A stretch of 64,000 nt of DNA, from positions 45,322 through 109,321 of IMG/VR virus record IMGVR_UViG_3300032893_000012, one strand, 5' to 3'. Position 1 is the first letter of the stretch; each line of letters starts with the position of its first letter. The notes below the pieces were generated by a model. The model ran no database searches, had not been told where the DNA came from, and saw only the letters and a program-made list of their open reading frames with translations. Positions 1,330 through 48,343 of the stretch are shown here, piece by piece. The stretch comes from a virus. The translations under genes and the position numbers were made by a program.

Positions 1330-1331
1330 TT

Positions 1332-1979: not shown

Positions 1980-2078
1980 TGCTCCTGACAGAAAAATCCG
2001 CATGCGGCTTTACTGTCTTACAGCCGCCGCAAAACTTCTCTACTTGTGTGGCAGTCGACTTCAAAAACTTGTTCTCCT

Positions 2079-2125
2079 GAAACGCGACGAGCGGCGCGGC
2101 GCTGTTTTCGCCGGCGCCGCTCGCG
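2079..2125 (-). terminator. GC-rich hairpin downstream of the capsid candidate (terminator/stability element)
   Basis: Arms cgagcggcgcggcg / cgccggcgccgctcg, followed by a short T run on the minus strand. Confidence 0.5.
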
Positions 2126-2173
2126 CTATGTGCTTAGAAAAGGCGATCGACCTTCTTCGGCACTCCTCTCGAA

Positions 2174-3511
2174 TCAGCCAGCCTTCTGCACGAGCTGCGG
2201 CGCGTTCTGGCTGCAGTATGCCTTCCAGCCGCCGGGCATTTCCCAGCCCTTGATCTTGATACCGATCTTCAGGATGCCACCCTTGAAGACCTCTCGGCAG
2301 ACGTTGACCGACTGCTGGATCAGCACCGGCGTCGCGTCGAGCGTCTGCTCCAACATGACGTTGTTTGCGCCTGAAGCAATGGCGCCTGCGGTCGGTACAC
2401 CGTTGCCTGCCGCAGCCCCCACCTGTGTCGAACAGGAAAGATTCGTGTCCGGCGAGATGTTGACACCGAGAGGCTCGTTGTTGATCGTGACTGCCTGGAG
2501 CATGAGCGCCTGGTGCACGGCGTCCTGCACGACGAACAGCATGCCGATGGGGATACCGCGCTCGAGGAAGCACGGACTCTCGATCGGCCGGTACATCTGG
2601 CCACGGCAACCGTAGCCCTGCCACCGGAGACCGCCCCACGTAACCGGTGCGAGATCGAAGTCGCGCGTCGGGTGGAACACGCCGACGTTGTTGGTCGCGC
2701 TCGTGCTGTTGACGCTGCCGACGCGCCTGAAATTCACCGGAAGGAAGATCGTCGCCGATCCCTTCGAGCGATAGAGCGCGTTGACCGCAGCCACGAATTC
2801 GATGATCGGCACCTCGCTCGTGCCGCTCGCTTCGGCGTCCGCGAAGGATCCGAAGTACGAGACGTCGGCCGCGAGCTCGTTCAGTACGAGCTCACGCTGC
2901 GAGGTCTTCCATTGGAACTGGTAGGCGTTGATGAAGTTCCAACCTGCACGCCACACGTCGGCACCGAACTCGAACACCGCCGGAGACGGCGGCGTATCGC
3001 TCGTCGGAGTCGCGCCGGCGAACTGTCCACCGAGTGCGCCGTTGAAGAGATCGTTGGCGGTGAACACGTCCGGTGAAGGAGGCGGAACCTGCGTCGTTGC
3101 CGGCGCCGCGAAAGCGTTGCCGATCGTCGAGAAGCTCATTGGTTCGCAGAAGGTGTGCACGCCGACTCCCTGAGCGAGGATATCGGTTTGCAAGATCCCG
3201 TTGATGAGGAACGTCGAATCGATCGACGCCACTCCGGGCACGCTCGATGAACCGCTGAGCAGGTTCACCGTGTCTCCGAGAGTGGCGAGCGCCTCCTCGG
3301 CAGTGAGCGGCAGAGGGATCGTCCAGACCACCTCTTCGATGACGGGGATGTTGCCGAATGAGCAACGAAGGCACTTGTCCATCGCGGCTGCGGCGAGCGT
3401 GCCGTCGATCTTGTTGGGGTCGAGACCGAGTCCAAACTGCGGACGCGCCACTTTCGGCTGGTCTCCGCCGAAGGTCTTGATGGTTCTGCCGATGATGCTT
3501 CTCGAGGACAT
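2174..3511 (-). CDS. Candidate major capsid protein (445 aa, fold unverified)
   Basis: AGGAG SD before ATG 3511; strongly C/G-ending codons; flanked by hairpins; beta-rich; follows the core-protein gene. No family motif recognised. Confidence 0.45.
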   Translation of the reverse strand: MSSRSIIGRTIKTFGGDQPKVARPQFGLGLDPNKIDGTLAAAAMDKCLRCSFGNIPVIEEVVWTIPLPLTAEEALATLGDTVNLLSGSSSVPGVASIDSTFLINGILQTDILAQGVGVHTFCEPMSFSTIGNAFAAPATTQVPPPSPDVFTANDLFNGALGGQFAGATPTSDTPPSPAVFEFGADVWRAGWNFINAYQFQWKTSQRELVLNELAADVSYFGSFADAEASGTSEVPIIEFVAAVNALYRSKGSATIFLPVNFRRVGSVNSTSATNNVGVFHPTRDFDLAPVTWGGLRWQGYGCRGQMYRPIESPCFLERGIPIGMLFVVQDAVHQALMLQAVTINNEPLGVNISPDTNLSCSTQVGAAAGNGVPTAGAIASGANNVMLEQTLDATPVLIQQSVNVCREVFKGGILKIGIKIKGWEMPGGWKAYCSQNAPQLVQKAG

Positions 3512-3570
3512 GATTTTTCGAGCTCCTGTTTTGCTTCGCCGTTTCTCTGGGCCGACGCGAAGCGTCTCTG

Positions 3571-3612
3571 ACACCTCAACCCCGGGGCTCGAGGCCTACC
3601 GGGGCGAGGTGT
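3571..3612 (-). other. Intergenic stem-loop between the core protein and capsid candidate genes
   Basis: acacctc..ccccgg / ccgggg..gaggtgt nested inverted repeat. Confidence 0.45.
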
Positions 3613-3626
3613 TTCACTGAACGAGT

Positions 3627-5312
3627 TCAGGTGCCGGGCAGGTACGGCAGCTCCTCGCGACTTTCTCCGAGGAAAGCGGAGTGACCGGCGAGCGGATCGC
3701 CTACGCACCCGCACGACGGATCCGAATGCGGTCGCGCCTGTGGCCCGGGACCGACGTCTGAGGGCGGTCCTGGTTGCCAATCCTGGCTCACGCCAGGTTG
3801 ACCCGGATTACCGCGTCCGTACGGCGCTCCGGTCCCCATGGACTGCGCCACGGTCGGGTAGTCGCTTCCGGGACCACCGGTTCCCCACGTGTTTTGCACG
3901 GTGGGGTACTGGGAGTCCTGAATGCCGGTGGCGTTTCGCAGCGCCTGGCCAGCATCCGGGTAAGGCGACTCCGCGGCGAGCGCGAACGGACCCACGTCGG
4001 CTCCGGAGAGCACGCCAGCCACGGCAGTCACCTGCTTCTGCTGCATGTTCAGGGATGCCGCGACCTCCGCTGGATAGAGGCGCACGATGATGCTCTTCTG
4101 GAGCGACGGAGGACTCGTGTCCTTCGGTGTGAGCATCGGCATGAGGAAGTTGTTCCAGAACATCCGGAACAGATTCACTCCGGCGCCGAGCGCCAGACCA
4201 TCCAATGCCGCTTTCCCTGTTCGATTGCGGACGGCATACGCCGAGAGCAACGCTGGCGCGGCAGCGACCCCGACTCCGGCGCCGATGCGCATGAGGTTGG
4301 GACGCATGGCCACGTTCAACGTGTTTGCGAGCGTGCCCGAACCATCGCTCGTAAACTTGTCGGTCGGCTTCGGATCTGTCGAGGACGGATTGTACGTAGC
4401 GAGCAAGCGATCGATGCCGTCCGCTAGAATGAAACCGACGCCGCTGGTGACAACCGCCACCGCGAAATCAGCAACACCCATTCCGCTTCCGCCTCCGCTA
4501 GATGCGTGCATACGCCGACTGTGACGCCGACGAGAATGACGACGACGAGGCGATTCCATCACGTGCGCTCGGCGCCGGCTGTGGCGCCTGCGACGACGAC
4601 GCGGAGCTTCGCTCACCACCGCTTCTCGAGTGGTTCGCCTACGCGCGTGCCGGCGCGTCTTCTTGCGACGCCAACCCTTCTTGGCTGCCTTCCGGTGACC
4701 GGAGGGGTTACCGCGCCACGCCTGCACGTTGCTATGCACGCGACGCCGATGCCGGCGACGTCGCCACTTCTGCTGCGGCGTGAGCACGCGCTTGCGCGTT
4801 CGACGACTTGCGCGGGCCTGTGTCTTGCGCGCTCGGCGACGACGCCTCCGCTTGGGGGCTGCCACCGATGTAGCTGCACGAACGCGCCGGCGACGCGCGC
4901 GCTTGGGCGCACTCTTCTTCTTGCTAGAGCGACGACGACGACGGGGTGAGGATACTTTCGCAGTTCTGGCCATGCTTTCCTCTCGAGCGACTACGGCGCG
5001 GATGCCTTTGCCGAACGGGACGGTCCGTTTGACTTTGGACCCTTTCGGATCGAATTGACGGATGCGGATGTACTGGTCGGTGACGTCCACCTTCCCGTAC
5101 CGGTAGCCGTGAGACCTAGCCCACGCTTTCGCCTTGCTCTCGGTCCACCCGGCGCTGCGATGAAACAGCAACGATTGGACAGACATCGATTTCGACTCGT
5201 GCGGCGCAACGGCGTCCGTACGCGGGTATGCGATCGGAGATGGCCTGTTTCGCGCGACATCACTACGGCGTGATTCGCTGAGATCGGCCAGTCGATCGTC
5301 GTAAAGACCCAT
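3627..5312 (-). CDS. Arg-rich protamine-like core protein with a small N-terminal domain and membrane segments
   Basis: QSLLF..WT..KAKAW..HG..KVDVT..IRQFDP domain; about 160 aa poly-Arg tract; three hydrophobic Gly/Ala segments. Start uncertain; internal SD + ATG at 4973. Confidence 0.7.
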   Translation of the reverse strand: MGLYDDRLADLSESRRSDVARNRPSPIAYPRTDAVAPHESKSMSVQSLLFHRSAGWTESKAKAWARSHGYRYGKVDVTDQYIRIRQFDPKGSKVKRTVPFGKGIRAVVAREESMARTAKVSSPRRRRRSSKKKSAPKRARRRRVRAATSVAAPKRRRRRRARKTQARASRRTRKRVLTPQQKWRRRRHRRRVHSNVQAWRGNPSGHRKAAKKGWRRKKTRRHARRRTTREAVVSEAPRRRRRRHSRRRAHVMESPRRRHSRRRHSRRMHASSGGGSGMGVADFAVAVVTSGVGFILADGIDRLLATYNPSSTDPKPTDKFTSDGSGTLANTLNVAMRPNLMRIGAGVGVAAAPALLSAYAVRNRTGKAALDGLALGAGVNLFRMFWNNFLMPMLTPKDTSPPSLQKSIIVRLYPAEVAASLNMQQKQVTAVAGVLSGADVGPFALAAESPYPDAGQALRNATGIQDSQYPTVQNTWGTGGPGSDYPTVAQSMGTGAPYGRGNPGQPGVSQDWQPGPPSDVGPGPQARPHSDPSCGCVGDPLAGHSAFLGESREELPYLPGT

Positions 5313-5539
5313 GTCACGATGCACTGACAGGCTCTCAGCGCAACCTATTACGGTCAATACGATGGCAAATAACGAGACGAATCACGCGCGCGTTGCCATC
5401 ACGCGAATGCGCGTCAACACCCCGACTCAGCACATGTCTAAAAATTTAGTATTCACGCGATGTTACGCATGAACACCCTCGTGACAATTCGACGCCAAAT
5501 ACCACTACGACATCGGCGTAACTCGAGCACCGTTTCTGT

Positions 5540-5572
5540 TCAACGAACGTTAAACAATCGTCAAACGATCGT
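5540..5572 (-). repeat. 3 x 11-bp tandem array (consensus ACGTTCGTTTG), putative operator
   Basis: Minus strand reads acgatcgtttg acgattgttta acgttcgttga; same unit at 12535 and 26199. Confidence 0.65.
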
Positions 5573-5576
5573 TTGA

Positions 5577-7208
5577 TTATCGGATGTTCGGGTAGAGCAG
5601 ATCGAGCAAAGTTGTGCGTTTACGGTGCACGCCGCCGAGCGAGCCTTCGCTCATACCAACGAAGTCTCCCGCACCGATCTCTTTTGCGGTCTTCCCTGGT
5701 TCGACCCACCACTCTTTTGCGTTGGGAGAGACGTGTCCGACGGGATAGTTCGTCGTTCCGTCCATTCTCACCCAATCTCCGAGGTCATCTTCGAACGCCA
5801 TGAATACGTGTGTCGGTACTTCATACGGCGCACGGTGACTGCTTCCGATGATCATGGCGTCGATACCGATCGACATCACCGCTGCGGCGAGCGTGATAGC
5901 CGCTTCGTCACAGTTGCTTACGGTTACGTCGTGCTCTGGGAGGTAGACGTAGTGATCGTCGGTAGAAATATCCCAGCAAGGGACTTTTCTGACGGATCGA
6001 TCTATCGATCGAACCGACAGTGTGAGTGATCCTTTCTCCCGTTGACCGACACGCCACAGAGGATGCTTTCCAGCTCCGCCATGTTGCTCTGGAGTGAGCA
6101 TTTTAACGCTTGTCATCTTGCCGAACATACGATGCAGTACGCGCACCTGAAGCATGAGTTGTCTGCTAGTCGTCGAATACGTACGCGTGGCGGCGCCGGT
6201 GTTCTTCGTGCTATCGGCCATCAATCCGCGCAAGGCCGCAGCGGCGCTAGCCTCTTCGAGATTAATCGTTTCCAGATGTTTAAATCTCGCTCGAGATCCT
6301 AGTCCGGCTATCCGTGAAGCCCATTCTCTATCTTTGATCTCGATGTATTTCGCGTGCCAGAGAGTCTCGATCCCGAGGCGTTCGCAGATGGCCTTGACCT
6401 CATGCTTCTGTTCTTCTTTGCGTTTGCCGTCGCGACCGCCAATGCGAAATTTCAGATGCGGCAGATTTTTGTTTTTGCTCGCTTCCACCCATCCGTCTGC
6501 GAGCGTCAGAGCTTCGACGTACATGCGATCCGGATCAACTCGCATCGATCCGAAAACGATACGTTCTGGTTGGAGAAGTGCGTCTCCCTCCGACAGATCA
6601 GTCACGCGGACACGCTCAAATGCGTTGCAATCTTTTTGGTAGCAGGCTCCGTGTGCTGACCGACCGTGCGGACACCTGCCGACATATACCTTGTGATCGC
6701 CGGTCAAATGCATCGTCGAGCCGTTGCTCATCTCGATAGCATCGACCGAAAGCGCTCCTTTTGCCCATTTTTGCGTAACTTCGCTCCACTTGTCCTTGCC
6801 CCAGATACGATCGCCGATATTGATCTTTTCGATCGGAATGAATTCAAAATCGTCGCGTAGGAGCAGCGTTCCTTCCGGGAAGCAATCGCCGCCGATGATG
6901 CAAAGCCCTCCCTCGTCGAGACAGAGAAGCTGGTTCGGTGTCGCCATAAATTCTCCCATGACTGGGTCAGCGACGTACGGAACCTTCTTTCTGAAGGCAT
7001 CGAGAATACACTGCGCCTTTTGACGTTTCCCGCCACGTGACACGCCTTTTTTGTCGAGCTGTTGGAGCACCCAGGCGCGCAATCTCGGACTCATTCGTGC
7101 GGACCATGCGCGGTCGGCCACCTCTTGCAAGGATTTCTTCGCTCCCTTAGCGCCAGCAGGGTGCGGTCCAGCATCTGTCTTCACTCCATTTATAGGCTTG
7201 TCGATCAT
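5577..7208 (-). CDS. Transglutaminase-like Cys enzyme (putative protease) interrupted by an intein
   Basis: Spliced extein reads YVADP..GGD|CDEAAITLAA..THVF..WVRMDG, the Cys-His-Asp triad of the transglutaminase-like fold; 219 aa after splicing. Confidence 0.85.
   Translation of the reverse strand: MIDKPINGVKTDAGPHPAGAKGAKKSLQEVADRAWSARMSPRLRAWVLQQLDKKGVSRGGKRQKAQCILDAFRKKVPYVADPVMGEFMATPNQLLCLDEGGLCIIGGDCFPEGTLLLRDDFEFIPIEKINIGDRIWGKDKWSEVTQKWAKGALSVDAIEMSNGSTMHLTGDHKVYVGRCPHGRSAHGACYQKDCNAFERVRVTDLSEGDALLQPERIVFGSMRVDPDRMYVEALTLADGWVEASKNKNLPHLKFRIGGRDGKRKEEQKHEVKAICERLGIETLWHAKYIEIKDREWASRIAGLGSRARFKHLETINLEEASAAAALRGLMADSTKNTGAATRTYSTTSRQLMLQVRVLHRMFGKMTSVKMLTPEQHGGAGKHPLWRVGQREKGSLTLSVRSIDRSVRKVPCWDISTDDHYVYLPEHDVTVSNCDEAAITLAAAVMSIGIDAMIIGSSHRAPYEVPTHVFMAFEDDLGDWVRMDGTTNYPVGHVSPNAKEWWVEPGKTAKEIGAGDFVGMSEGSLGGVHRKRTTLLDLLYPNIR
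5913..6884 (-). mobile_element. Intein (324 aa) with a LAGLIDADG-type, possibly degenerate, endonuclease region
   Basis: Block A CFPEGTLL, block B LTGDHKVY, LTLADGW / LRGLMADS / STTSRQL blocks, block F-G CWDIST..VTVSN followed by +1 Cys. Confidence 0.9.
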
Positions 7209-8257
7209 CGGCGATTACGCTTTCGGTTTGTCAGATAGATCGCACTTCCTACGACTCCTGCCCCGAGGAGTCCGATTCCCGCCATCGCTCCGACGCTGAG
7301 TCCAGATGATGCAGTCGCTACAGGTGCAGCAGGCGTGATAGGCGCAACAGGTGATACGGTTACATGCGGTGCGCACGCAGTCGGAGCGCTCCCTAGCGCC
7401 TGCGCTAGAGCGCTCGCTGTCGCTTGCTCGTAGTTGCTCGTGTTGATCGGAACTGGGTTAGCGCCGGACGAATTCCAAGCCGTTTTGAAGGCGTGAACCG
7501 CTGCGTTGACGCTGCTTCCGGGGTGCGTCACCGACGTGCAGTAACTCGGATCGGCGACAATGGCGGCTACTGCGGCTCGTGCGGCATCGGCTACTGAGGT
7601 AGGCGGCGCCGGGACATCGCCGTAAAACGCTTGCAGCGCTAGCCTAGCCGATGACATCGCATCCGAGAGATCGTGTAAGACGTCCGAACGAACCTGAAAG
7701 GAATCGTTGCTATTTCCGGCAACGATTGCAGCACTAAGCGCCGGAAGTCGAGCGCGCGCTTTACTGGTGCTCTTACGTACGTCTTGCGCGTACGGGATTG
7801 CGTACACCGCAGGGGACCCACTGCCGACGATTTCCGAGACCGATGCATCCACAACATTGGCAGCATTTTCAGCGGCGTCGCCGAATCCTTGATCTCCCAT
7901 CGCAGCAAGCGCACTGACCTTCGCATTCGCCGCATCGAGCGCGGCGTAGTCGGCGAGCACTCCAGCGGCCGCATCACCGAGAGACGATGGCGTGACGCCA
8001 TCCATATGAGGAAGCGCAGCGAAGTACGCCCGGGGACGCGTATCCAGTTCGCCAGAGAACCACTTCTCCGGTAAGTTGAGAACCTCGCCCTCGCGTAGAT
8101 CTTTGAACGTAACGAAACCGTTCGGAAGACGCTTTGCCGCCTTGTGAGGGTTGGCGCGCACGATGTCAATTGCGCATTTTGGGCAGCCAGCCATGTCCGG
8201 CCGACTGGCGATACTAGCCGGGCTATCTCCAGCCTGAACGACGTAAGTCCGCGTCAC
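7205..8257 (-). CDS. LysM-domain protein with a C-terminal membrane anchor
   Basis: TYVVQAGDSPASIA..IVRANP..LREGEVLNLP; C-terminal hydrophobic helix followed by RKRNRR. Confidence 0.8.
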   Translation of the reverse strand: MTRTYVVQAGDSPASIASRPDMAGCPKCAIDIVRANPHKAAKRLPNGFVTFKDLREGEVLNLPEKWFSGELDTRPRAYFAALPHMDGVTPSSLGDAAAGVLADYAALDAANAKVSALAAMGDQGFGDAAENAANVVDASVSEIVGSGSPAVYAIPYAQDVRKSTSKARARLPALSAAIVAGNSNDSFQVRSDVLHDLSDAMSSARLALQAFYGDVPAPPTSVADAARAAVAAIVADPSYCTSVTHPGSSVNAAVHAFKTAWNSSGANPVPINTSNYEQATASALAQALGSAPTACAPHVTVSPVAPITPAAPVATASSGLSVGAMAGIGLLGAGVVGSAIYLTNRKRNRR

Positions 8258-8310
8258 GCCTCAAAGACTACGCGCTAGTCATGAGGGTCGTCCAGCAGCA
8301 GCTGGAATCT

Positions 8311-8502
8311 TTAGGCGTATTCGCGCTCTGGCTGGTGTACGACAGGGCTTCCGTTACCGTCCGCGAGCCGGATTCCTTCATTTTCGACTGCCATCCGTAC
8401 GAGCGGACTCTTGAGGAGTTCGAGTAACTTGATCGCTTGTTCAAGCCCCTGATGGTCGTTCGCCGCTTCGATCGCAACGCTCATTGTGACGCGGTATCTC
8501 AC
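8311..8502 (-). CDS. Hypothetical protein
   Basis: GTGA-coupled 63 aa ORF in the operon. Confidence 0.6.
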   Translation of the reverse strand: MRYRVTMSVAIEAANDHQGLEQAIKLLELLKSPLVRMAVENEGIRLADGNGSPVVHQPEREYA

Positions 8503-8774
8503 GCAGAGAACCCCGCATCAGGCTGCGGCTCAGGCGGCTGTGGAGCGTTTTCCTGCGGAGGCGTGTCAGAAGTAATCGGAGGAGCGCTAGGCGGCGTCGA
8601 ACCCACAACAGCAGCAGCGAATATTTCTCCAGCTATCCGAAAAAGATTCGGATCGATTCCACGCAAGTGTCTCAAAGTGTCGTGGATAGCGTTCAGTGTC
8701 CAACGCCGCCCTACGTCTTCGGCATACTTGAGCACTTCATCGTCAGTGAGTTCAACTTGAATAGAAAAACGCAT
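8499..8774 (-). CDS. Hypothetical protein with a Pro-rich tail
   Basis: TAATG coupling at 8774. Confidence 0.6.
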   Translation of the reverse strand: MRFSIQVELTDDEVLKYAEDVGRRWTLNAIHDTLRHLRGIDPNLFRIAGEIFAAAVVGSTPPSAPPITSDTPPQENAPQPPEPQPDAGFSA

Positions 8775-10456
8775 TAGGAGTTTCCTTGTCCAGAAATATT
8801 CGGTGGTGCCCACGTCTGTCGCGATGCAGGTGAAGGCGAAATAGGCGGCGGTAGATTCGCTGGCGGAGGAGGAAGCGGCGCTGCGGTCGGGGGCAATTGA
8901 TGCGGATCCACCGCTGCCGCAACGAATCCTGGCGGTGGTTGGTAGTCTGGCGGCACCTCTAAGTAGCCTGGCGGCAACACGCGCTTCTGTTCTGGAGCTC
9001 GATTTTGACTCTTCTGGATCGCCTCGCGTTGTTCACCGAGCCACTTGAGAAAGCTTCCCAGGTTCGCCGCTGCAGATTCGCCCCAGCGCATAGTGCCATC
9101 CGCTTTGCTGTACGCGATCTTGCCGTTGCCAGTATCGAGAATTTTGATCGGACTGTCGTCTTCTTCGGTCGCTACCGGTTCCGGCGCTTCTCGCTCTTCG
9201 TCCGTCCCTAGAATACTTCCAAATTCTTTCGCGGTAGCTACAGCCGTGCGTACCAATGTCAGCGATTCTTTGAGATGCTCCGCCGCAGTTTGCTGGCGCG
9301 GTGGCTGCTCACTGCTGTATCGCGGTGGCGGTGGCGGCGCCTGACCTGGATCTCCTTGCGGGTAATACTGACGCTGAGGCCCCATGCGCGCGCCCGATCC
9401 GGGCCCCATGTTCGGAACGAACAGCGACGCTAGTCGGTCGATCGGTACGAAACCGAGCGGCGTCCACACCGTGCCCTGAGGAGCAGGTATCGGGGGCGCA
9501 CCCATCATTCCTGGAACGAAGCTTGGTACCGCTGGCGGCGTCGGCGGCGCTCCCTGCGTTACCTGTTGCGGCTGCATGGACTGCGCGAGAGTGAGCATCC
9601 GCTGGAACCATTCCATCATCGTCGGCATGTCCGCCCCCGGTGGGGGCATTGGCGGCGGCGGCGGAGGAGGCGGCGGCGCTTGCGGCGGAGGCTGCATGCT
9701 CTGAACTATTTGCTGCATCCGCTGAAACCACTCGAACATCGTACCCATGTCGGGTCCAGCCGGCGCCTGAACAACGACTGGTACTTGCGGCGGCTGCGGC
9801 GACGGAGCTGTCGCAGCTGCGGGCGGATACGCTGGTTGCGGCTGCGGGGGCGAGTAACCAGGTTGAGCTGGATAACCGGGCAGCGGATACTGTGGTGGAT
9901 AGCCGGGCGGATATGGATATGACATCGGCTGTCCTTGCTGCGGTCGAGTATCCGGCAATGTGATCTTACCGTTACCGCGAAACTGCTTGCTATTGGTGTC
10001 GAGGATTTTGACCTCGTAGTCGGCCTCACCGTGCTGGCCGTGAATGATCTTGAGCGCGTCGTAGAGTTCCGCCGCGGATCTTGGACGACTGATGATTACT
10101 TGCTGGACCGGAGTTCCAGTAAGCCGTCTAACGTGTATGTCGAGTGTGTTTGCTGGCCAATACCGAAGAAGCGTCTCGTACGTGGTGAGCAGATCACCGG
10201 TGTTGAACGAGACCTTGCTCTGGTTCGAGCGCTTCTTGTCGACGATAGCGTCGAGGCGACGGTTTTCACGTACGCTTTCGGCGTCGACGGCGCCTATCGC
10301 GCGAACGGCATCTTCGGATGCTACGAGTTCGCCAGTGTCCTCGTCACGTTCAGCCCCAACCTCGGCCAGGACGTCGGCCTCGTCCTCCTGCGCAGGTGTA
10401 TTCGAGGCTGTATGCGCAGGAGGCGATTCACTGCGAATTCGTCTACGTGTTCCCAT
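8774..10456 (-). CDS. Pro/Gln-rich low-complexity protein with an internal duplicated helix
   Basis: 560 aa; poly-Pro tracts; DMxTMxEWFQRMxxxxQSMQP occurs twice. Confidence 0.75.
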   Translation of the reverse strand: MGTRRRIRSESPPAHTASNTPAQEDEADVLAEVGAERDEDTGELVASEDAVRAIGAVDAESVRENRRLDAIVDKKRSNQSKVSFNTGDLLTTYETLLRYWPANTLDIHVRRLTGTPVQQVIISRPRSAAELYDALKIIHGQHGEADYEVKILDTNSKQFRGNGKITLPDTRPQQGQPMSYPYPPGYPPQYPLPGYPAQPGYSPPQPQPAYPPAAATAPSPQPPQVPVVVQAPAGPDMGTMFEWFQRMQQIVQSMQPPPQAPPPPPPPPPMPPPGADMPTMMEWFQRMLTLAQSMQPQQVTQGAPPTPPAVPSFVPGMMGAPPIPAPQGTVWTPLGFVPIDRLASLFVPNMGPGSGARMGPQRQYYPQGDPGQAPPPPPRYSSEQPPRQQTAAEHLKESLTLVRTAVATAKEFGSILGTDEEREAPEPVATEEDDSPIKILDTGNGKIAYSKADGTMRWGESAAANLGSFLKWLGEQREAIQKSQNRAPEQKRVLPPGYLEVPPDYQPPPGFVAAAVDPHQLPPTAAPLPPPPANLPPPISPSPASRQTWAPPNISGQGNS

Positions 10457-10459
10457 CGT

Positions 10460-10849
10460 TCAAACTTGCGCCTGTCCGCCCGTCGTCTGCTGCGGTTCTT
10501 CCTCTTCTGGTTCGGTTCCGTCAGATTCGGCTGCCTCGAGTTCGTCAGCGAAGACCTCGAGAGGCATCGCCTCTTGTACGAATCGAATTCGACCCATTGG
10601 AACGAAGTCGCGCATACCTACTGCGTCACCACCTTCAACCGCATCCAAATACGAGAAAATCTCGATTCCTCCGCCCGCATCTGTTCCAATGAACATACGT
10701 ACGACTTTCGCGCCTGGCACGTGCGGATGCTCGCTACCCACCGCCCATCGTGTGGTCTCAGGCTGCCCCGATACGGGAGCTAGATTGTCACTGATCACGA
10801 GTGTGACCATTGGATAGGTCGGAGGCGGAAGCTTAAAAACTGTCGTCAC
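10460..10849 (-). CDS. Hypothetical acidic protein
   Basis: GTGA-coupled 129 aa ORF. Confidence 0.65.
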   Translation of the reverse strand: MTTVFKLPPPTYPMVTLVISDNLAPVSGQPETTRWAVGSEHPHVPGAKVVRMFIGTDAGGGIEIFSYLDAVEGGDAVGMRDFVPMGRIRFVQEAMPLEVFADELEAAESDGTEPEEEEPQQTTGGQAQV

Positions 10850-11448
10850 AGCGCGTTATCCTCCAAGAATGAGTAGTAGCTCCGCCTACGAGCGTCGCCG
10901 GCGACGATAATGTGGTCGAGGAACTTGATGTCAATGGTTTCGAACGCATCAACGAAGGCGTCTGTCGTTTCGATGTCCGCCTCGCTCGGTTCGGCTTCGA
11001 TGCCCGACGGGTGTACGTGGAAGATGATCACCGCGTGCGCCCCGTCCGCTACGGCGGCTTGAAGAGTCGGTAGGATGGGTGCCATCACGCTGGACGGCTC
11101 CCCACGTCCGGTCTCAGCAAGACCCTTGAATCGTAAATGCAGATCAAGCGTCACGACTCCGAAAACCTCATTGACCTCGTCTTCGATGGCCTCACCGATG
11201 AGATGGAAGGCCTTTTCCGGTTCGTCGAGCGGTCCGATCTGATCTGAGAGCGCGTTACACGCCGCGAACCTGTCAGCGTCCTTCTGAATCGTCAAAAACG
11301 GACGGCACCGCGCGCCGCGCTTGCCATCGATGATGAGCGGTTCTACTTCGCGCGGTCGTCGCGGGGCCACCCGATCCCGTACAATACCGCGGATGGCATG
11401 TTCCGAGACTCCGTGCATGCGAGTAAGCGGCCTGCACGCGCAAGTCAC
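10846..11448 (-). CDS. JAB/MPN (RadC-like) domain protein
   Basis: EVFGV..HVHPSG..PSEADIETT..FLDHIIV, an intact JAMM motif. Confidence 0.9.
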   Translation of the reverse strand: MTCACRPLTRMHGVSEHAIRGIVRDRVAPRRPREVEPLIIDGKRGARCRPFLTIQKDADRFAACNALSDQIGPLDEPEKAFHLIGEAIEDEVNEVFGVVTLDLHLRFKGLAETGRGEPSSVMAPILPTLQAAVADGAHAVIIFHVHPSGIEAEPSEADIETTDAFVDAFETIDIKFLDHIIVAGDARRRSYYSFLEDNAL

Positions 11449-11753
11449 GCTACAGCCGCCTGTATTGATGCGCCTTTCAGATCGACAAATTCATCTAGCG
11501 ATACGCCGCGCACGCGGCAGATCGCTTCGTCGATCTTGAAAGTGACGCAATGCCTCTTGAAGGTCATGTCGTACACTTTTTGTGCCACGACGATGTCTCC
11601 CGGCTTGTATCCTGCAGCCTCTGCCGCTGGACCAACCTCGTCGAGCAGGAAACAGCGCGTGACACCTTTCGCGTGATCAAGCACCAGTTCACTGGTCGGT
11701 TTCGGCACAAGAGCGCGTCCGATGACCCAATCGTTAACAGGTTCGAGCTTCAC
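11445..11753 (-). CDS. Divergent GroES-like co-chaperonin
   Basis: MKLEPVNDWVI..ELVL..VGP..KPGDIVV..DEAICRV follows the GroES pattern (LxPLxDRV, VGxG, GDxV). Confidence 0.65.
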   Translation of the reverse strand: MKLEPVNDWVIGRALVPKPTSELVLDHAKGVTRCFLLDEVGPAAEAAGYKPGDIVVAQKVYDMTFKRHCVTFKIDEAICRVRGVSLDEFVDLKGASIQAAVA

Positions 11754-12334
11754 GTCTGTTCCTCTTCTTGTTCGATAGTGAATCGATCGTAGAAAGACTG
11801 CGAAGGTGACGGAGGGGTTAGCGCAGCGATGGTACCGTCCGTATTCGGCGGAGGTTCGACCGTTGCGCTTTGAAGGCGAGCCAGTTCCGCTTTCGTTGTT
11901 TCGAGCTCGATCTCGAGAGCCATACGCGAGGTTAATACTTCACTGAAATACTCACGACTTGGGGCGAAGTACGGTTCCTGTGCCGGCGGACGCGCAGCGA
12001 GAGGAGCAAACTGTCGTGCGGCGTTCAATACAACGAGAGCGTTCATGCGCTGTTCGCGGTCAGGGCAACCTCGAGTGATCAGAACAGCAGGCTTCCCTGA
12101 ATCTGAAGTGTCGTAGCGATCGTTTACGCACGGTTCCGTTTCATCGTCTTTGCCGGGACAGCCGTTCACGTGCGCGCATCGTTCAAGTATTCCGAAGGCA
12201 GCGCGCGCCGCAATCTGCCAGCCGACTTTGTTGCGCCACAGAGCGAGCTTGACGGCGTTCCAGTCGCGTACCGATATCGGTACCTTCTGATCGACTGGAG
12301 TTTCGAGCCCCTGCCTTCTTTTTTCGTTCATCAT
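11750..12334 (-). CDS. Hypothetical protein
   Basis: 194 aa coupled ORF. Confidence 0.65.
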   Translation of the reverse strand: MMNEKRRQGLETPVDQKVPISVRDWNAVKLALWRNKVGWQIAARAAFGILERCAHVNGCPGKDDETEPCVNDRYDTSDSGKPAVLITRGCPDREQRMNALVVLNAARQFAPLAARPPAQEPYFAPSREYFSEVLTSRMALEIELETTKAELARLQSATVEPPPNTDGTIAALTPPSPSQSFYDRFTIEQEEEQT

Positions 12335-12681
12335 CAGATCGTCGCTCCGTCTGGTTCAACGATGCGGATGTACCCGTCGCTCGGAGGGCGCTTAGCCGCT
12401 TGAACAAGGATCGAGCGCATCCACGCGCTCATGCTTAGTCCGCGTTTCTTCGCTCTTTCTTCGATCAAACGGTACTGAGCCGGCGTGAGCTTGACGCCCG
12501 CGGTCTTGGCCTTGAGCGGTAGACGTTCGGTTGGACGTTCGTTTGCCGTTCGTTTGCCTTTCGTTGACGCTTTCGTATACTGCTCTCCGTCCGCTAGACG
12601 TGTCAAGACGCTAGACGTAGACTCAGCGTACGGATGGCACAGTTCGGCATCGGACCTGAACTCGCGGCACAGTGCCCACAA
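12334..12681 (-). CDS. Ribbon-helix-helix DNA-binding protein (start uncertain)
   Basis: KTAGVKLTPAQYRLIEERAKKRGLSMSAWMRSIL, CopG/MobC-like; no clear ATG near the domain. Confidence 0.7.
   Translation of the reverse strand: MWALCREFRSDAELCHPYAESTSSVLTRLADGEQYTKASTKGKRTANERPTERLPLKAKTAGVKLTPAQYRLIEERAKKRGLSMSAWMRSILVQAAKRPPSDGYIRIVEPDGATI
12535..12567 (+). repeat. 3 x 11-bp tandem array overlapping a putative sigma70 promoter
   Basis: acgttcgtttg ccgttcgtttg cctttcgttga; TTGCCT(12554)-N16-TATACT(12576). Confidence 0.65.
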
Positions 12682-13047
12682 GCGTCGACGCCAGACGGTT
12701 GGCGTCCGTGGTCACCTGACGCAGATGGGCCAATTCCGGACGCTCTAGCTGCGCGCGCGGCTGCTCTTGTGGGCGATCAGGCGACCGCGCTCGGAGCGAC
12801 AGAAAGCTATCCTCTTCCAGGGGTTACGACACTTATTCGAATCGAACCACGTGTCTGGGGACGCGATGCACAGGGCGCACTCGTCGAGGGGTGCTTTCGA
12901 AGTGGCGGTGTCTATCTACCGTACGGAACCCCGGCAGGCGCAGCGACACCGAGCGACGACAAGCTCGCAAAAACAGTTGGAGTACTCACCGCGGTGAGCC
13001 TGGTGGTCGGAACTGCGGCAACGATTGCTACCTGGGGACGTCGATGA
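12634..13047 (+). CDS. Membrane-anchored protein, putative virion protein
   Basis: C-terminal TM helix followed by GRR; N-terminal QFGIG motif. Confidence 0.7.
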   Translation: MAQFGIGPELAAQCPQASTPDGWRPWSPDADGPIPDALAARAAALVGDQATALGATESYPLPGVTTLIRIEPRVWGRDAQGALVEGCFRSGGVYLPYGTPAGAATPSDDKLAKTVGVLTAVSLVVGTAATIATWGRR

Positions 13048-13226
13048 CCATCGAACGTAATGGTCGTACTGTTGTTGGATTCGGAGATGAGGCTGTTTCG
13101 CTTCCGATCAAAGCGCCGCCGTCGACGTGGACCGTTGCGCTCGCGACGAGCGTCGTTGGCGCTGCGACAGGATGGGTCATCGAGGAAATAGCGAGCAACA
13201 TCCGAGGTCGAAAGAAGCGCCAATAA
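13044..13226 (+). CDS. Small membrane protein with an NGxxVVGFGD leader
   Basis: ATGA coupling; hydrophobic helix and basic tail. Confidence 0.7.
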   Translation: MTIERNGRTVVGFGDEAVSLPIKAPPSTWTVALATSVVGAATGWVIEEIASNIRGRKKRQ

Positions 13227-13849
13227 TGAACGAGCAGATTCGAATCAATGGCGCATCTGTCGTCGGGCTCGGGGACGCGAAAGTTGTGGCGCCTCCAAGT
13301 TCCCGTGTAGCGCAAACACTCGCGGATGCTTTTCTCGGTGCGGCAGCGGGAGCAGGGCTCGGTGGGCTTATCGGAGGGAAGACTGGCGCACTAATCGGCG
13401 TCGCGGTTGGGGGTATCGGTGTGGGAGCAGTTACGTATGCGGTGCTGGGAGAGGATACGTGGAATACATCACCTCTACCTCCAACAACGACATCTGTCTG
13501 GCGCCAGCTCACTCAACCGACTGACAGCGTGAAGGCGGGAGAGGAGATGGCCGTAGCGATCTTAGGACCCAACAGGACACCTCTGTCGCCGGATCTGATC
13601 GCGCAGCTAGATGCTGCACTTGCATTGATTCCTAGCTACAACGTGACGGCGCTCATAGCGAAGTATCCGCCAGGAACATCGCCGCCTGCAAACGATTGGC
13701 CCTCAGACTATGTGATACCGCCCGGAATGAGAGATGATTTCGGTCCCGGCGCGTATCGCGTGCTACTTCGTGCGCTTATCGATTCCCCTCCGACGTTCTG
13801 GCACTCCGTACCATCAAATGTCGGGACGTTCGGAATATGGGCACGATGA
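13226..13849 (+). CDS. Glycine-zipper membrane protein with an NGxxVVGLGD leader
   Basis: TAATG coupling; GAAAGAGLGGLIGG..GVAVGG. Confidence 0.7.
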   Translation: MNEQIRINGASVVGLGDAKVVAPPSSRVAQTLADAFLGAAAGAGLGGLIGGKTGALIGVAVGGIGVGAVTYAVLGEDTWNTSPLPPTTTSVWRQLTQPTDSVKAGEEMAVAILGPNRTPLSPDLIAQLDAALALIPSYNVTALIAKYPPGTSPPANDWPSDYVIPPGMRDDFGPGAYRVLLRALIDSPPTFWHSVPSNVGTFGIWAR

Positions 13850-14400
13850 AGTACGGCGGTTACTCTGAAGCGGAGGCAACGATGATCTTTCTCGGCGAAA
13901 CGGCGTTCCTAGGCGCGTGTCCCGTCATTCGGCCGGAAGGGATCTATCTCGATGGGCAGCGTGTGATTAGATTTGGGCTCGGTGCCGTAGAACGCAAAAA
14001 TCCGCTACCTGCAGGAAGATACTGGGTCGATGTTTTCGCAAAAGATTCAGACGCTTTTGGCGCATGGCTCAACTCAAATAAAGCCACCGTTCAGGTACGC
14101 ACAACGGAACATTTTGACTCGGATCCGGTACGTGATTGGTACCTGTTTGAAGTAAGCGTTCCGACTCCGTGGCAGGGACCTGGTTTTCCAACTATCGCTG
14201 GGCCGCACGTAACGAGTTCGAGCGATACCGCACAACGACCCGATCCAGTACCTTCAGTCGCGACACAGGTTGAAAAAGAACTCGCGGATCTGAAAAGCGC
14301 AACCAGAACCGCGACATGGATCGGTGCTGCGGTTCTCGTCGTGGTTGGTGGAGCTCTACTCGTCTACTACGTACCTCGCCCTGCAACGCGATCTAGATGA
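13846..14400 (+). CDS. Membrane-anchored protein with a DGxxVIRFGLGA motif
   Basis: ATGA coupling; C-terminal TM helix. Confidence 0.7.
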   Translation: MKYGGYSEAEATMIFLGETAFLGACPVIRPEGIYLDGQRVIRFGLGAVERKNPLPAGRYWVDVFAKDSDAFGAWLNSNKATVQVRTTEHFDSDPVRDWYLFEVSVPTPWQGPGFPTIAGPHVTSSSDTAQRPDPVPSVATQVEKELADLKSATRTATWIGAAVLVVVGGALLVYYVPRPATRSR

Positions 14401-14603
14401 CGCTTCGAGCTCGCATTCAAGAATTGGAAGAACGAGTCGAAGCGATAGCCGCAGAACTCGCTGACGTACGTCAAAATCTACTCGAAGCCCTAGCGCGAGC
14501 AATCCACGGGCCGTCCCAACCGCCCCCGATACTCTCACTTCAGTCGCAAGACCCAAGCGAGAACGACGATGCCGACCACAATCACGAAAAGAATAAACGC
14601 TGA
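14397..14603 (+). CDS. Small coiled-coil protein
   Basis: ATGA coupling; heptad pattern. Confidence 0.5.
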   Translation: MTLRARIQELEERVEAIAAELADVRQNLLEALARAIHGPSQPPPILSLQSQDPSENDDADHNHEKNKR

Positions 14604-14858
14604 CGGGCGCGCGTTTTTCAATAGGACGCGGAGCCCAGTCGGACGAAGCGAAAACTGCGTTTCGCTCGGCAACTCATCTCGATAGCGATCGATCGCACTC
14701 TGGCTCTGCCGATCCTCTGCCTCGCCCTGCAGTGTCGCAAGTTCGTTTCCGAGTCGTCGTACACGCCCCCAGATCACGATAACCTCGGCTTTTAGCTCAT
14801 CGACTTCCCGCTCCAGGTCGAGTCGGCGCTGGCGTTCATCAGTCGGCATACCCACCAA
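14535..14858 (-). CDS. Coiled-coil protein with a C-terminal TM helix (holin-like architecture possible)
   Basis: Heptads followed by FILFVIVVGIVVLAWVL. Confidence 0.55.
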   Translation of the reverse strand: MVGMPTDERQRRLDLEREVDELKAEVIVIWGRVRRLGNELATLQGEAEDRQSQSAIDRYRDELPSETQFSLRPTGLRVLLKNARPSAFILFVIVVGIVVLAWVLRLK

Positions 14859-14915
14859 GGTAGCGCGAACTCACGCATTTCGCTTGACGGTACCGCAAGC
14901 GGTACTCTCGGGTTG

Positions 14916-15167
14916 TCAGCGCGGTAACTGTTGCGTCGGTACTGGTGCGGGTTCGTCACTTCCGATTGTCCCACCGATGAATGCTCCGACCACTGCGCCG
15001 GTCGCGCCGCCAACCACCATCGCGTCTTCGATATCTGCGCCACGTTGAGCCGCAGTGTATCTGACGCGCGGACGATACCGCGCTGCGTAATGCCCAGCGG
15101 CAGCGCCGGCAGCACCCCCGACTAACGCACCAAGCGCGCTCCAGAGACCAGTCTTGGCGTTGCTCAT
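14916..15167 (-). CDS. Small glycine-zipper membrane protein
   Basis: Two GxxxG helices; similar to 221..445. Confidence 0.7.
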   Translation of the reverse strand: MSNAKTGLWSALGALVGGAAGAAAGHYAARYRPRVRYTAAQRGADIEDAMVVGGATGAVVGAFIGGTIGSDEPAPVPTQQLPR

Positions 15168-15179
15168 GGAATTTTGCTT

Positions 15180-15578
15180 TCAGTTCGTAGCTGTCGTCTC
15201 GTACGAGACGGCGAACAACACGGTGTCCATCGTCAAAGTGTCATTACCGCGAGCCACGACGAGCCATAGTGCCTCCGCTTCCGAGGGAAGGTGCACCATG
15301 CTGTGCGCCGACTTGTGGGCGATCGTGAGTGCGCGTAACAATGCGGGCGCTTTCGAACCCATTTTCTCTCGAAACCATTTCACGTAGGCGGGGCGTGGCA
15401 TCGCCTGAAAACCACTCGGGTCCTGCTCCGACACTAGAAGAACGAGATCGCTCGTCTTGAACGTATCGCGCGCAACTCGATAGGCGCCGAGAATGTCTTC
15501 CGGCGCGAACAGTTGCGTGATCAAGCGTTTGCAGTTTTCTGCTGTATTCGGAGCGAAATCGATTCCTGTTCGACGCAT
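15180..15578 (-). CDS. Hypothetical protein
   Basis: GAGGAG SD; 132 aa. Confidence 0.65.
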   Translation of the reverse strand: MRRTGIDFAPNTAENCKRLITQLFAPEDILGAYRVARDTFKTSDLVLLVSEQDPSGFQAMPRPAYVKWFREKMGSKAPALLRALTIAHKSAHSMVHLPSEAEALWLVVARGNDTLTMDTVLFAVSYETTATN

Positions 15579-15604: not shown

Positions 15605-16222
15605 ATGGTCGGAATCGCGCAACACGTTCCGCTCTTCACCAAGATGGTCGATAGGTTAGCGCCGATTTCCGCCGAGCTTGCATCGGCGTTCAAGGCAGCT
15701 GGAATAGGGGTCGTCGGACGCTACCTGGAAACGCTTACTCCGTACGAACGCGACAATCTGTTCGAGGTCGGACTCGGAATTTTACCCCTCTCGAAGGCGC
15801 CCCCTCAACCTCTCTCGGCAGCGTTCGGGCGCGCTCGTGCTGAGGAGCTACTTCAAAAAGCGTCGTTGCTCGGCGTTCCGGCAGGCGTGCACCTCATGAT
15901 CGATCTCGAGGCGCAGCAGGGGGATCACACGGATGTCGTTGGCTACGACAGCGAACTTTCAACCGAGATCGCTCGCATCGGTTACATTCCGCTCGCGTAC
16001 ATCGGAGCCGATCAGCGACTCTCGAGCGCAGAACTGTTCACGCTTCCAGATATCCATCTCTACTGGCGTGGTGGATCGCTCGGCATTCCGGAACCGGCAT
16101 GCGGGTTCGCTATTTGGCAAATTCCACCGCTCGAACAGCAGGTATGCGGTTCGATTGTCGACATGAGTCTCACTGGAGCCGATCTACGCGGACGTCGACC
16201 GATCTTCTGGTATCCAGACTAG
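15605..16222 (+). CDS. DUF1906 / Rv2525c-like (GH25-related) putative peptidoglycan hydrolase
   Basis: AAGIGVVGRYL..LT..E..GLGILP..G..RA..LGVPAG..IDLE..GY...Y..WQ pattern. Confidence 0.7.
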   Translation: MVGIAQHVPLFTKMVDRLAPISAELASAFKAAGIGVVGRYLETLTPYERDNLFEVGLGILPLSKAPPQPLSAAFGRARAEELLQKASLLGVPAGVHLMIDLEAQQGDHTDVVGYDSELSTEIARIGYIPLAYIGADQRLSSAELFTLPDIHLYWRGGSLGIPEPACGFAIWQIPPLEQQVCGSIVDMSLTGADLRGRRPIFWYPD

Positions 16223-17151: not shown

Positions 17152-17409
17152 TTATGCCTTTTCCCGAGTCAACTTCCAGATGCTGTACGAACCCCGATCA
17201 AACAAGCGCGCGATCTCGCGGTAGCCCATGCTCTTGGTGCCGCGTAGCCATCCGTAAACCGCTCGTCGCGCGGCGATGACAGGACCCGTGCGGGGACCCT
17301 CGTAGATCTCCTGGAGCGAGACGCGGGTCGCCTTTGCGCGCTTCTCTAGCTCGGGGCGGAGACCGCTTGAGTCGAGTCGCTTGAGGAACTTTTTGTAGGA
17401 ACGCGTCAT
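17152..17409 (-). CDS. Stand-alone DnaA C-terminal (domain IV)-like HTH protein
   Basis: SLQEIY..PR..VIAARRAVYGWLR..MGYREIARLFDR resembles the DnaA-IV ARQIAMYL..SLPEIGxxFxRDH pattern. Confidence 0.6.
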   Translation of the reverse strand: MTRSYKKFLKRLDSSGLRPELEKRAKATRVSLQEIYEGPRTGPVIAARRAVYGWLRGTKSMGYREIARLFDRGSYSIWKLTREKA

Positions 17410-18395
17410 CGTGTCGCACTCCTGGTCAGCGCGGAGAGGAGCGCCTCGACGACGGTCGTCATCTCTCTGACATCACCGAGATCGATCCATTCCCCCGAAT
17501 CGCTCACGCGGTATGCGTGATACGAAAGTACGTCGATGCCGCACTCACCGAGCTTCCGCCGACGGCGATCGGCGACATGGTCCCACCAAGAGATCGAGAC
17601 CGATCCGTCGTCGCCCGCCGTGGCGGTGCCGGCGTAGCCCGCCGTGGCGATGCCGCCGTCGCCCGCCGTGGCGGTGCCGCGTGCGCCCGCCGTGGCGGTG
17701 CCGCCGTCGCCCGCCGTGGCGGTGCCGGCGTAGCCCGCCGTGGCGGTGCCGGCGTCGCCCGCCGTGGCGGTGCCGCGTGCGCCCGCCGTGGCGGTGCCGC
17801 GTGCGCCCGCCGTGGCGGTGCCGTCGTCGCCCGCCGTGGCGGTGCCGGCGTCGCCCGCCGTGGCGGTGCCGGCGTCGCCCGCCGTGGCGGTGCCGGCGTA
17901 GCCCGCCGTGGCGGTGCCGGCGTAGCCCGCCGTGGCGGTGCCGTCGTCGCCCGCCGTGGCGGTGCCGGCGTAGCCCGCCGTGGCGGTGCCGAACACGCAT
18001 GCCACGGATGGGTAAGCCCCCTGGATCAGGGCAATCGCACCGGCGCGGTCGCCCGCGAACACCACGAAGCCGCGCGGCGCCTTCGACTTGCCGCCCCCAT
18101 CTTCGGTGATCGGTACTACCTCGCTGGCAACGGCGGCCCAGACGAGCCATTTCGCATCGTCATATTTAGAGAGAAGATTCGCCTTCCCTTCGCCGCGAGG
18201 TAGGCCGTGCAGGCCATAGCCGCAGCAGTCTCGCGACGACCAGTCTGGCGCGGAAACAAGCCCGCGTTCGGGCCATGTGAAGTCGCCGTACGAGCGCATT
18301 GCAGCGGAACAAGTGCGTAGAAGGAGGAGTAGGTCATCCGGCGCGCACCTGAGTGCCGCAGCAGCTTCGTGGCGGATTGATTTCAGGTCGATCAT
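17406..18395 (-). CDS. Phage protein with 16 octapeptide GTATAGxx repeats (ice-nucleation-like beta-solenoid)
   Basis: N-terminal SYGDFTWP..APDW..CGYGLHG domain followed by perfect octapeptide repeats. Confidence 0.8.
   Translation of the reverse strand: MIDLKSIRHEAAAALRCAPDDLLLLLRTCSAAMRSYGDFTWPERGLVSAPDWSSRDCCGYGLHGLPRGEGKANLLSKYDDAKWLVWAAVASEVVPITEDGGGKSKAPRGFVVFAGDRAGAIALIQGAYPSVACVFGTATAGYAGTATAGDDGTATAGYAGTATAGYAGTATAGDAGTATAGDAGTATAGDDGTATAGARGTATAGARGTATAGDAGTATAGYAGTATAGDGGTATAGARGTATAGDGGIATAGYAGTATAGDDGSVSISWWDHVADRRRRKLGECGIDVLSYHAYRVSDSGEWIDLGDVREMTTVVEALLSALTRSATR
17607..17990 (-). repeat. 16 x 24-bp coding tandem repeat
   Basis: ggcaccgccacggcgggc plus 6 variable nt on the minus strand. 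Confidence 0.95.
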
Positions 18396-18631
18396 TACTA
18401 ACTGTTCACCTTCCGTACAACATCTACGCCACCCGCGCAAGTTTCCTTCCCCACAAAGCCAGCGAGCCCCCTTTTGGAGGCTCTTTCAAGACGGACTGGA
18501 TACCGCTGGTATATCCGGTAATTAGCAGGGCTGGCACGACGATATTGACTGCTGCCGCGCAAATGGCAACGGGAAAAAATACCCGACGCCTTGACGATCC
18601 CCGGATCTCTGCGGGACACTCCTCGTACAAG

Positions 18632-26321: not shown

Positions 26322-29476
<3,155 letters not shown>

Positions 29477-40978: not shown

Positions 40979-40991
40979 CAGATCCTCTCCT

Positions 40992-48334: not shown

Positions 48335-48343
48335 AGAAGTACG

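Follow-up and report, generated by a model that had tools for sequence, protein, structure and literature searches.

A conserved N-terminal tag on predicted membrane-anchored proteins of a hypervariable viral locus

The cassette and its four genes

The virus genome with the IMG/VR record IMGVR_UViG_3300032893_000012 (109,321 bp, rated complete by CheckV) is a member of an uncultivated lineage of ~70–140-kb bacterial viruses. We have analyzed its right-hand 64 kb (positions 45,322 to 109,321 of the record), here called the window and numbered from its first nucleotide. At 12634–14400 there is a cassette of four genes, P1 to P4, which is a hypervariable locus encoding predicted membrane-anchored proteins built on one plan. 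Our subject is a short peptide, the tag, found at the N-terminus of proteins encoded by this locus. An earlier note had described a shared Gly-hydrophobic-Gly leader on three adjacent putative virion proteins, and had suggested that it is a maturation signal cut by an intein-gated enzyme of transglutaminase fold.

The four genes form a short operon on the plus strand; they are co-directional, overlapping and translationally coupled, and all have positive coding scores under a codon-usage model trained on the long open reading frames (ORFs) of the genome. Each encodes a hydrophobic segment. Scans of P1 to P4 against Pfam and PHROG returned no match, and a scan for promoters and terminators around the cassette found nothing above chance. 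Eight IMG/VR contigs (38–111 kb) are syntenic with the window across 20 kb, and all eight carry P1 and the P4 locus together with genes for a capsid candidate, a core protein, a transglutaminase-like enzyme, a RadC-like protein and a ribbon-helix-helix protein.

P1 (12634–13047) has 137 amino acids, with an F-G-x-G motif followed by Cys-Pro at the N-terminus and a membrane anchor at the C-terminus. An orthologue of 52–65% identity lies at the same place in all eight syntenic loci. P2 (13044–13226), the start of which overlaps the stop codon of P1 in an ATGA sequence, is a minimal tagged protein of 60 amino acids. Its tag (13044–13088) is followed by a short linker, a weakly hydrophobic membrane helix rich in Gly, Ala, Ser and Thr, and a basic tail; orthologues are present in seven of the eight loci. 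P3 (13226–13849) has 207 amino acids, comprising the tag (13226–13276), a two-helix glycine-zipper hairpin and a C-terminal domain of 130 amino acids. It has orthologues only in the relatives L007 and L044, and one of the eight syntenic loci carries it.

P4 (13882–14400) occupies a polymorphic locus, and has 172 amino acids from its likely start. Alternative ATG codons occur at 13837 and 13846; the start at 13882 is the likely one because it is preceded by a GGAGG ribosome-binding site and agrees with the starts of homologues. The protein is divided into an N-terminal module (13882–13986), a ferredoxin-like core, and a C-terminal anchor with a basic tail (~14308–14397). In an AlphaFold2 (AF2) model the mean predicted local distance difference test (pLDDT) score is 79.8, with values above 90 in the core and of 58–76 in the module, where short strands are linked by Asp/Asn-Gly turns. 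Comparison of the model with PDB and BFVD by Foldseek gave generic ferredoxin/ACT-like similarity alone (E > 0.03). A Leu-Gly-Gly-Cys sequence in P4 was considered as a lipobox and rejected, as the segment that precedes it is ~9 residues long, acidic and devoid of a hydrophobic core.

The tag in this genome

The strings quoted in the earlier note are all present at the positions given there. The N-termini of P2 and P3 align with each other by BLASTP with E = 6e-4, 13 of 26 residues being identical. We also constructed a hidden Markov model (HMM) of 17 positions from the tags of relatives only, and ran it against all six translated frames of the complete 109-kb genome. It matched P3 (E = 1.1e-5) and P2 (E = 0.08), and the next match had E = 2.5. 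On these comparisons P2 and P3 share a significant N-terminal peptide, and the observation is real but narrower than had been supposed. The string proposed as the third copy, in P4, was rejected as a homologue of the tag; its BLASTP alignments to P2 and P3 are not significant, and the tag HMM fails to align with it. A second HMM, made from the N-terminal module of P4, has P4 as its sole match in the genome (E = 1e-20). There are, however, long-form homologues of P4 in which a full tag lies directly ahead of the Cys-Pro block, and residues 1–17 of P3 match residues 1–17 of a long-form homologue with 59% identity. The long forms join the tag to the P4 module, and it is therefore by its first ten residues, and not by the string aligned in the note, that P4 is related to P2 and P3.

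The consensus of the tag reads Met-Asn-Glu-Gln/Thr, hydrophobic-x-Leu, Asn/Gly-Gly, x-Pro-Val-Val-Gly-Phe-Gly, so that its C-terminal end has the form V/I-x-G-F/L-G. The short glycine motif by itself is not a distinguishing feature of the genome. G-[FLIVM]-G occurs 50 times in the 123 predicted proteins compared with 64.8 ± 7.3 in shuffled sequences, and is if anything depleted. The weaker echoes of the motif that had been noted in the LysM, transglutaminase-like and core proteins are therefore best taken as chance, and neither HMM matches any of these proteins. Within the first 50 residues G-[FL]-G is found 12 times (5.0 ± 2.2 expected) and F-G-x-G five times (1.5 expected, P about 0.02). This excess is modest and was noticed post hoc, and Gly-zipper membrane segments account for part of it.

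The tag and its cargoes in related viruses

A large protein collection contains 76 homologues of P4, falling into classes that have unrelated middles and near-invariant ends. At the N-terminal end is a module of ~35 residues, with Met-Asn-Glu, a Phe-Leu-Gly-Gly turn, Cys-Pro, three short strands, and one to four Gly-hydrophobic-Gly units. The C-terminal anchor ends in Tyr-Tyr-x-Pro-Arg-Arg. Gly-hydrophobic-Gly marks the exact junction between tag and cargo, and several tag-less class-A homologues of P4 begin at this point. In the cassettes of the syntenic relatives the tag is borne by the orthologues of P2, by P3, by the products of additional genes and by P4 proteins of the long form, and one relative has four tagged genes in succession. 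The expectation that the leader would be conserved in homologues is thus borne out, both for the tag and for the glycine motif at its junction.

The eight syntenic loci together with 31 more from a metagenome scan make a set of 39. These contain 83 tagged ORFs (a count that includes duplicates), with one to four in each locus, only in the cassette and always after the conserved first gene. The eight 20-kb loci were scanned throughout, and the tag was seen nowhere outside the cassette. We also searched 1.84 billion cluster representatives with a profile of the module. Seventeen clusters matched, three of them apparently spurious, and in 11 of the other 14 the called protein has the module no more than a few residues from its start. 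HMM matches are therefore confined to one cassette in the genome, in the 20-kb loci and in the 39 loci, and the tag does not serve as the general mark of virion proteins that had been envisaged.

Across loci the module retains 64–72% amino-acid identity, and 49–58% of the codons at which the residue is conserved differ synonymously. Conservation at the level of DNA, or through recombination only, can be rejected on account of these abundant synonymous differences; the constraint acts on the peptide, rather than on DNA or RNA or as a consequence of recent recombination. Tags are more similar within genomes (0.51) than between them (0.40; permutation P = 0.04). This is weak evidence for a shared partner with which the tags of one genome co-evolve, or for gene conversion.

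At least seven unrelated types of cargo lie between tag and membrane anchor. These are the ferredoxin-like class-A core, a helical class of ~200 residues, two other unannotated classes, a DUF333 domain, a glycine zipper alone, and no cargo at all (P2). DUF333 (PF03891) was identified in the cassette protein P0077 with E = 7.7e-22, above the cut-off and covering model positions 1–46 of 47, and it begins no more than two residues after the junction. It matches three of 36 cassette proteins, and it can follow the short tag as well as the long module. In relatives (L009 9576–9956, L018 4343–4813 and L043 530–1000) it is placed before or after a two-helix glycine zipper; the class was not found in the window itself. 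Two cassette proteins have weak matches to the mycobacterial cell-wall synthesis protein CwsA (E = 1.4e-4).

From these comparisons we propose a common plan. Such a protein would start with a tag of ~16 residues running from Met-Asn-Glu to Val-Gly-Phe-Gly or, in P4, with a truncated tag and then a Cys-Pro β-meander, ~35 residues in total. A Gly-hydrophobic-Gly hinge would connect this to the cargo, an exchangeable middle domain that is sometimes absent, and the protein would end in a membrane anchor, which is a glycine zipper of two helices or else one helix followed by a basic tail. To judge from the P4 model, the tag itself may be a β-hairpin.

Predicted membrane topology

Whatever the architecture, tag and cargo are placed across the membrane from the basic residues, whether these form the tail after a single helix or the loop of the two-helix zipper, which may have the cargo ahead of it or behind it. 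Applying the positive-inside rule, tag and cargo should therefore be extracytoplasmic. The cellular occurrence of DUF333 points the same way, since the Escherichia coli protein YoaF is annotated as a lipoprotein, with a signal peptide and lipobox just ahead of the domain.

An F-G-x-G motif in P1 and the capsid candidate

The earlier note had drawn P1 and a capsid candidate into the same family of motifs. The N-terminal F-G-x-G of P1 and the Cys-Pro that follows it are kept in nine of nine orthologues. The capsid candidate is encoded on the minus strand (2174–3574), and has an F-G-L-G sequence (3425–3436) in its basic N-terminal arm. Taking the best 120 of more than 426 homologues (at least 71% identity), the motif Arg-hydrophobic-Pro/Gln-Phe-Gly-Leu-Gly is present in 119, at about residue 26 and just before a highly conserved body, and the F-G-x-G motif of the arm was also found in five of six loci. 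The motif is thus well conserved in both proteins, but it has too few residues for its sequence to establish kinship with the tag. Its conservation in P1 and the capsid arm keeps alive the hypothesis that these proteins undergo a common processing.

No gene of the lineage is better conserved than that of the capsid candidate, whose homologues, more than 426 in number and 71–90% identical, are on contigs of up to ~139 kb. It has no sequence match in Pfam or PHROG, nor in PDB using a profile search of the family. Its AF2 model is poor (mean pLDDT 36, from a shallow alignment of sequences 72–90% identical) and does not give a fold. Neither for P1 nor for the capsid candidate was a search of the ESM Atlas informative. 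The proteins that we scanned against Pfam and PHROG included no recognizable prohead protease, portal, terminase or HK97 capsid.

The transglutaminase-like enzyme and its intein

The protease proposed to cut the leader is a transglutaminase-like protein encoded on the minus strand (5577–7208) and interrupted by an intein of ~325 amino acids. An intein-less orthologue aligns with Transglut_core (PF01841) over positions 14–107 of 108, with E = 0.0023 and a score of 18.6 bits, which is below the cut-off of 23. Among the 354 homologues of the enzyme, many carry a precomputed match to PF01841 and the corresponding Joint Genome Institute (JGI) name, and Cys109, His143 and Asp159 are invariant in 120 of 120 homologues. 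A comparison of the enzyme with PDB gave zero matches.

The intein (Hint plus LAGLIDADG) is inserted directly before the catalytic cysteine, as seen from the mapped extein junction. It is present in the window and in only one of the eight relatives, and nearly all the 354 homologues are intein-less proteins of ~220 amino acids. The idea that the intein gates the enzyme is therefore not supported; on this distribution it is an occasional parasite and not a conserved gate.

None of our results connects the enzyme with the tag. The enzyme is of soluble type with an intact Cys-His-Asp triad and lacks a hydrophobic segment, whereas the tags are predicted to lie across the membrane. All the genomes seen contain both enzyme and tag, so that their joint presence has no power to discriminate. 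A gene for a LysM membrane protein adjoins that of the enzyme, and a LysM/peptidoglycan-binding protein is also encoded a few kb outside the window. Judged by this context, a role as a cell-wall peptidase or cross-linker is equally plausible as one in maturation.

Genes around the cassette

Divergent from P1 on the minus strand is a ribbon-helix-helix gene of NikA/CopG type (12334–12606; Pfam NikA-like, E = 3.2e-7), which is the neighbor of the cassette in all eight loci and may regulate it. Just upstream of the cassette region a RadC-like JAB-domain protein (10846–11448, minus strand, E = 3.5e-23) is kept in all relatives. The structural-looking unannotated genes form a long minus-strand block (442–12334) to the left of the cassette, and small minus-strand genes for membrane proteins lie on its other side. 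Adjacent to the cassette are three small genes (14535–15578, minus strand) that are kept in most relatives and are possible partners of the tagged proteins; they encode a coiled-coil protein with a C-terminal anchor, a glycine-zipper protein of 83 amino acids (Gly-zipper_Omp, E = 2.6e-6), and an uncharacterized protein of 132 amino acids. Just downstream is an Rv2525c-like glycoside-hydrolase-like gene (15605–16222, plus strand). The relative L001 (IMGVR_UViG_3300027991_000080) has instead a lysozyme-like gene (7965–8723), beside a 65-amino-acid two-helix holin-like ORF (7755–7952).

Further along, a protein of 344 amino acids (17406–18440, minus strand) consists of ~20 tandem heptad-like repeats of Gly-Thr-Ala-Thr-Ala-Gly-x, with a weak match to DUF4774, and within the repeat all three frames are open on both strands. 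A collagen-repeat protein of 958 amino acids (26352–29228, plus strand; Pfam Collagen, E = 1e-92) is encoded beside a minus-strand cluster (30328–41011) that contains GH16, two GT2 glycosyltransferases, methyltransferase domains and an HtrL-like gene. Adjacent genes for VWA-domain, PP2C-phosphatase and protein-kinase-like proteins (47588–50847, plus strand) resemble a triad of signaling or defense type.

A description of the lineage was not found in a literature search, and a megablast against a phage collection returned zero matches. We name no host, because a scan of genome contigs found no cellular or prophage copies.

Possible functions of the tag

We give about an even chance that the tag is a lineage-specific sorting or assembly signal carried by swap-prone membrane-anchored proteins, a reading that draws on the comparisons above and on analogy with phage T4. 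The tag would then be a common recognition element, by which one viral or host partner sorts or docks many cargoes into the same membrane structure. Several points weigh against it. The AF2 confidence for the P4 module is moderate. A location in the virion is called into question by the proximity of lysis-type genes, the Rv2525c-like gene here and the lysozyme-like gene in L001. It would be unusual for N-terminal domains of up to ~250 residues to be translocated without a classical signal, and the topology may have been wrongly predicted. The likeness of tags within a genome could arise from gene conversion instead of co-evolution. Moreover the tag of P4 is degenerate in L004, and L003 has one tagged gene only. 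Lastly, the hinge is variable, with one to four G-x-G units, which fits a linker, although it could still be a processing site.

The alternative closest to the original proposal is that the tag is a leader, a propeptide removed at Gly-hydrophobic-Gly by the transglutaminase-like enzyme, which would also trim P1 and the capsid arm at F-G-x-G. The motif at the junction is kept across all classes of cargo, and the natural tag-less homologues start right behind it. Together with the direct abutment of DUF333, placed as it would be behind a signal peptide, these natural starts favor a separable leader, while the variable length of the hinge and the predicted strand structure favor a docking element that is retained. 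The near-complete conservation of F-G-x-G in P1 and the capsid arm, and the invariant triad of an enzyme found in eight of eight relatives, are consistent with processing. Yet the enzyme is soluble and the tags are predicted to be across the membrane from it, it is encoded beside LysM/peptidoglycan-binding proteins where an action on the cell wall is equally plausible, its presence alongside the tag does not discriminate, and its intein is not conserved. P1 would lose seven residues only. On balance a cleaved leader seems rather unlikely. A related thought, that the 16-residue tag is an atypical export signal, a very short signal-like peptide for translocation of the N-terminus that host signal peptidase may remove, is decidedly unlikely. 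Signal peptidase accommodates Gly at −3 and −1, and the G-x-G at the junction provides small residues at both positions; furthermore the tag sits where the cellular DUF333 homologue has its lipoprotein signal, its core is moderately hydrophobic, and the predicted topology puts tag and cargo outside the cytoplasm. But a Sec signal requires a basic N-region and a sufficient hydrophobic core, and the tag has neither. Its N-region is acidic, with a net charge of 0 to −2 and no Lys or Arg before the core, and the core is at most ~11 residues, interrupted by Asn-Gly and Pro. The commonest and best conserved form of P4 has lost most of this core, and P1 often has Pro at +1, which would block signal peptidase.

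It might also be asked whether the tag acts as a signal at all. The shared N-terminus could be a remnant of tandem duplication and domain shuffling among paralogues, kept for the fold or for insertion into the membrane. The tandem arrangement of the genes is as expected on this view, as are the greater similarity of tags within genomes than between them and a loose similarity among the anchors of P2, P3 and P4. Against this, the tag is the most conserved part of proteins whose middles have unrelated folds, and it has been kept at 64–72% identity in the face of saturating synonymous change. At least seven types of cargo, and a protein of 60 amino acids with none, are hard to explain if the tag is a part of the fold. 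We think such a remnant rather unlikely. A membrane-active role is very improbable indeed. The order of a Gly/Phe/Leu/Val-containing N-terminal peptide, an ectodomain, a membrane helix and a basic tail, with the tag predicted on the outer face, recalls a class I fusion subunit, in which a Gly-rich peptide forms the tip of a C-terminally anchored ectodomain. The tag, however, is too short and its start is polar, it occurs on a 60-amino-acid protein that has no ectodomain, the several types of cargo would not all be fusogens, and no heptad-repeat core is predicted in the AF2 model.

Comparison with known systems

The closest functional parallel for the tag as a sorting or assembly signal is provided by phage T4. 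Its internal proteins are diverse and fast-evolving, and their targeting sequence is the sole conserved part, serving to load them into the particle (PMC3012670). Like the T4 capsid targeting sequence (CTS), the tag is a conserved peptide of few residues that stands at the very N-terminus of proteins not related in other respects, and the locus encoding them is polymorphic. CTS and tag do not resemble each other in sequence. The T4 cargo is soluble and enters the scaffolding core, where the CTS is cut after Glu by the gp21 prohead protease, whereas the cargo here is membrane anchored and no gp21-like protease or HK97-type capsid can be recognized.

The sites cut during maturation of adenovirus and the nucleocytoplasmic large DNA viruses (NCLDV) are Gly-Gly-X or Gly-X-Gly, preceded at a short distance by a hydrophobic residue; they are located near the termini of structural proteins, in viruses that contain a membrane or are tailless, and are recognized by clan CE cysteine proteases. 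The consensus for adenain is (M/I/L)-X-G-G-X or (M/I/L)-X-G-X-G. The end of the tag, V/I-x-G-F/L-G, resembles the second form only if Val is accepted, as it mostly has Val upstream in place of Met, Ile or Leu. In this virus the only candidate cysteine enzyme appears to be a member of the transglutaminase-like (papain-like) superfamily, and does not have the adenain/Ulp1 fold.

Other likenesses are more limited. The double-glycine leaders of bacteriocin precursors and ribosomally synthesized and post-translationally modified peptides (RiPPs) also occur in adjacent genes, as conserved Gly-ending segments before hypervariable cores. Their consensus differs, and the products here are membrane proteins of 60–300 amino acids rather than secreted peptides; neither a C39 peptidase nor an ABC exporter was found in the cassette or its flanks. 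In the adenovirus fiber tail and the shared N-terminus of PRD1 P5 and P31, a short N-terminal segment docks different bodies at one site on the particle. Those proteins are soluble spikes, while the tagged proteins are membrane anchored. The tag also lies immediately upstream of DUF333, as does the signal of E. coli YoaF, but it lacks the basic N-region and the lipobox, its hydrophobic core is too short, and the viral proteins are anchored by C-terminal helices.

Implications

The lineage is widespread in metagenomes, judging from the more than 400 homologues of its capsid candidate, yet its machinery for virion formation, packaging and entry is almost wholly unannotated. The tag offers a handle on a group of proteins, all of which must encounter the same partner, and points to where diversity in the interaction with the host is concentrated. 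The boldest reading combines sorting with processing. The tag would load swappable membrane-anchored effectors into the membrane of a new, possibly tailless lineage of large viruses, and the enzyme would trim it at Gly-hydrophobic-Gly and also trim the capsid arm. We consider this quite unlikely, but if true it would be a bacterial-virus counterpart of the maturation of adenovirus and NCLDV, built on a different protease fold.

If the tag is a loading signal, it might be used for the display or delivery of foreign proteins in the manner of the T4 CTS. If it is a processing site, it would define a new specificity for a maturation protease.

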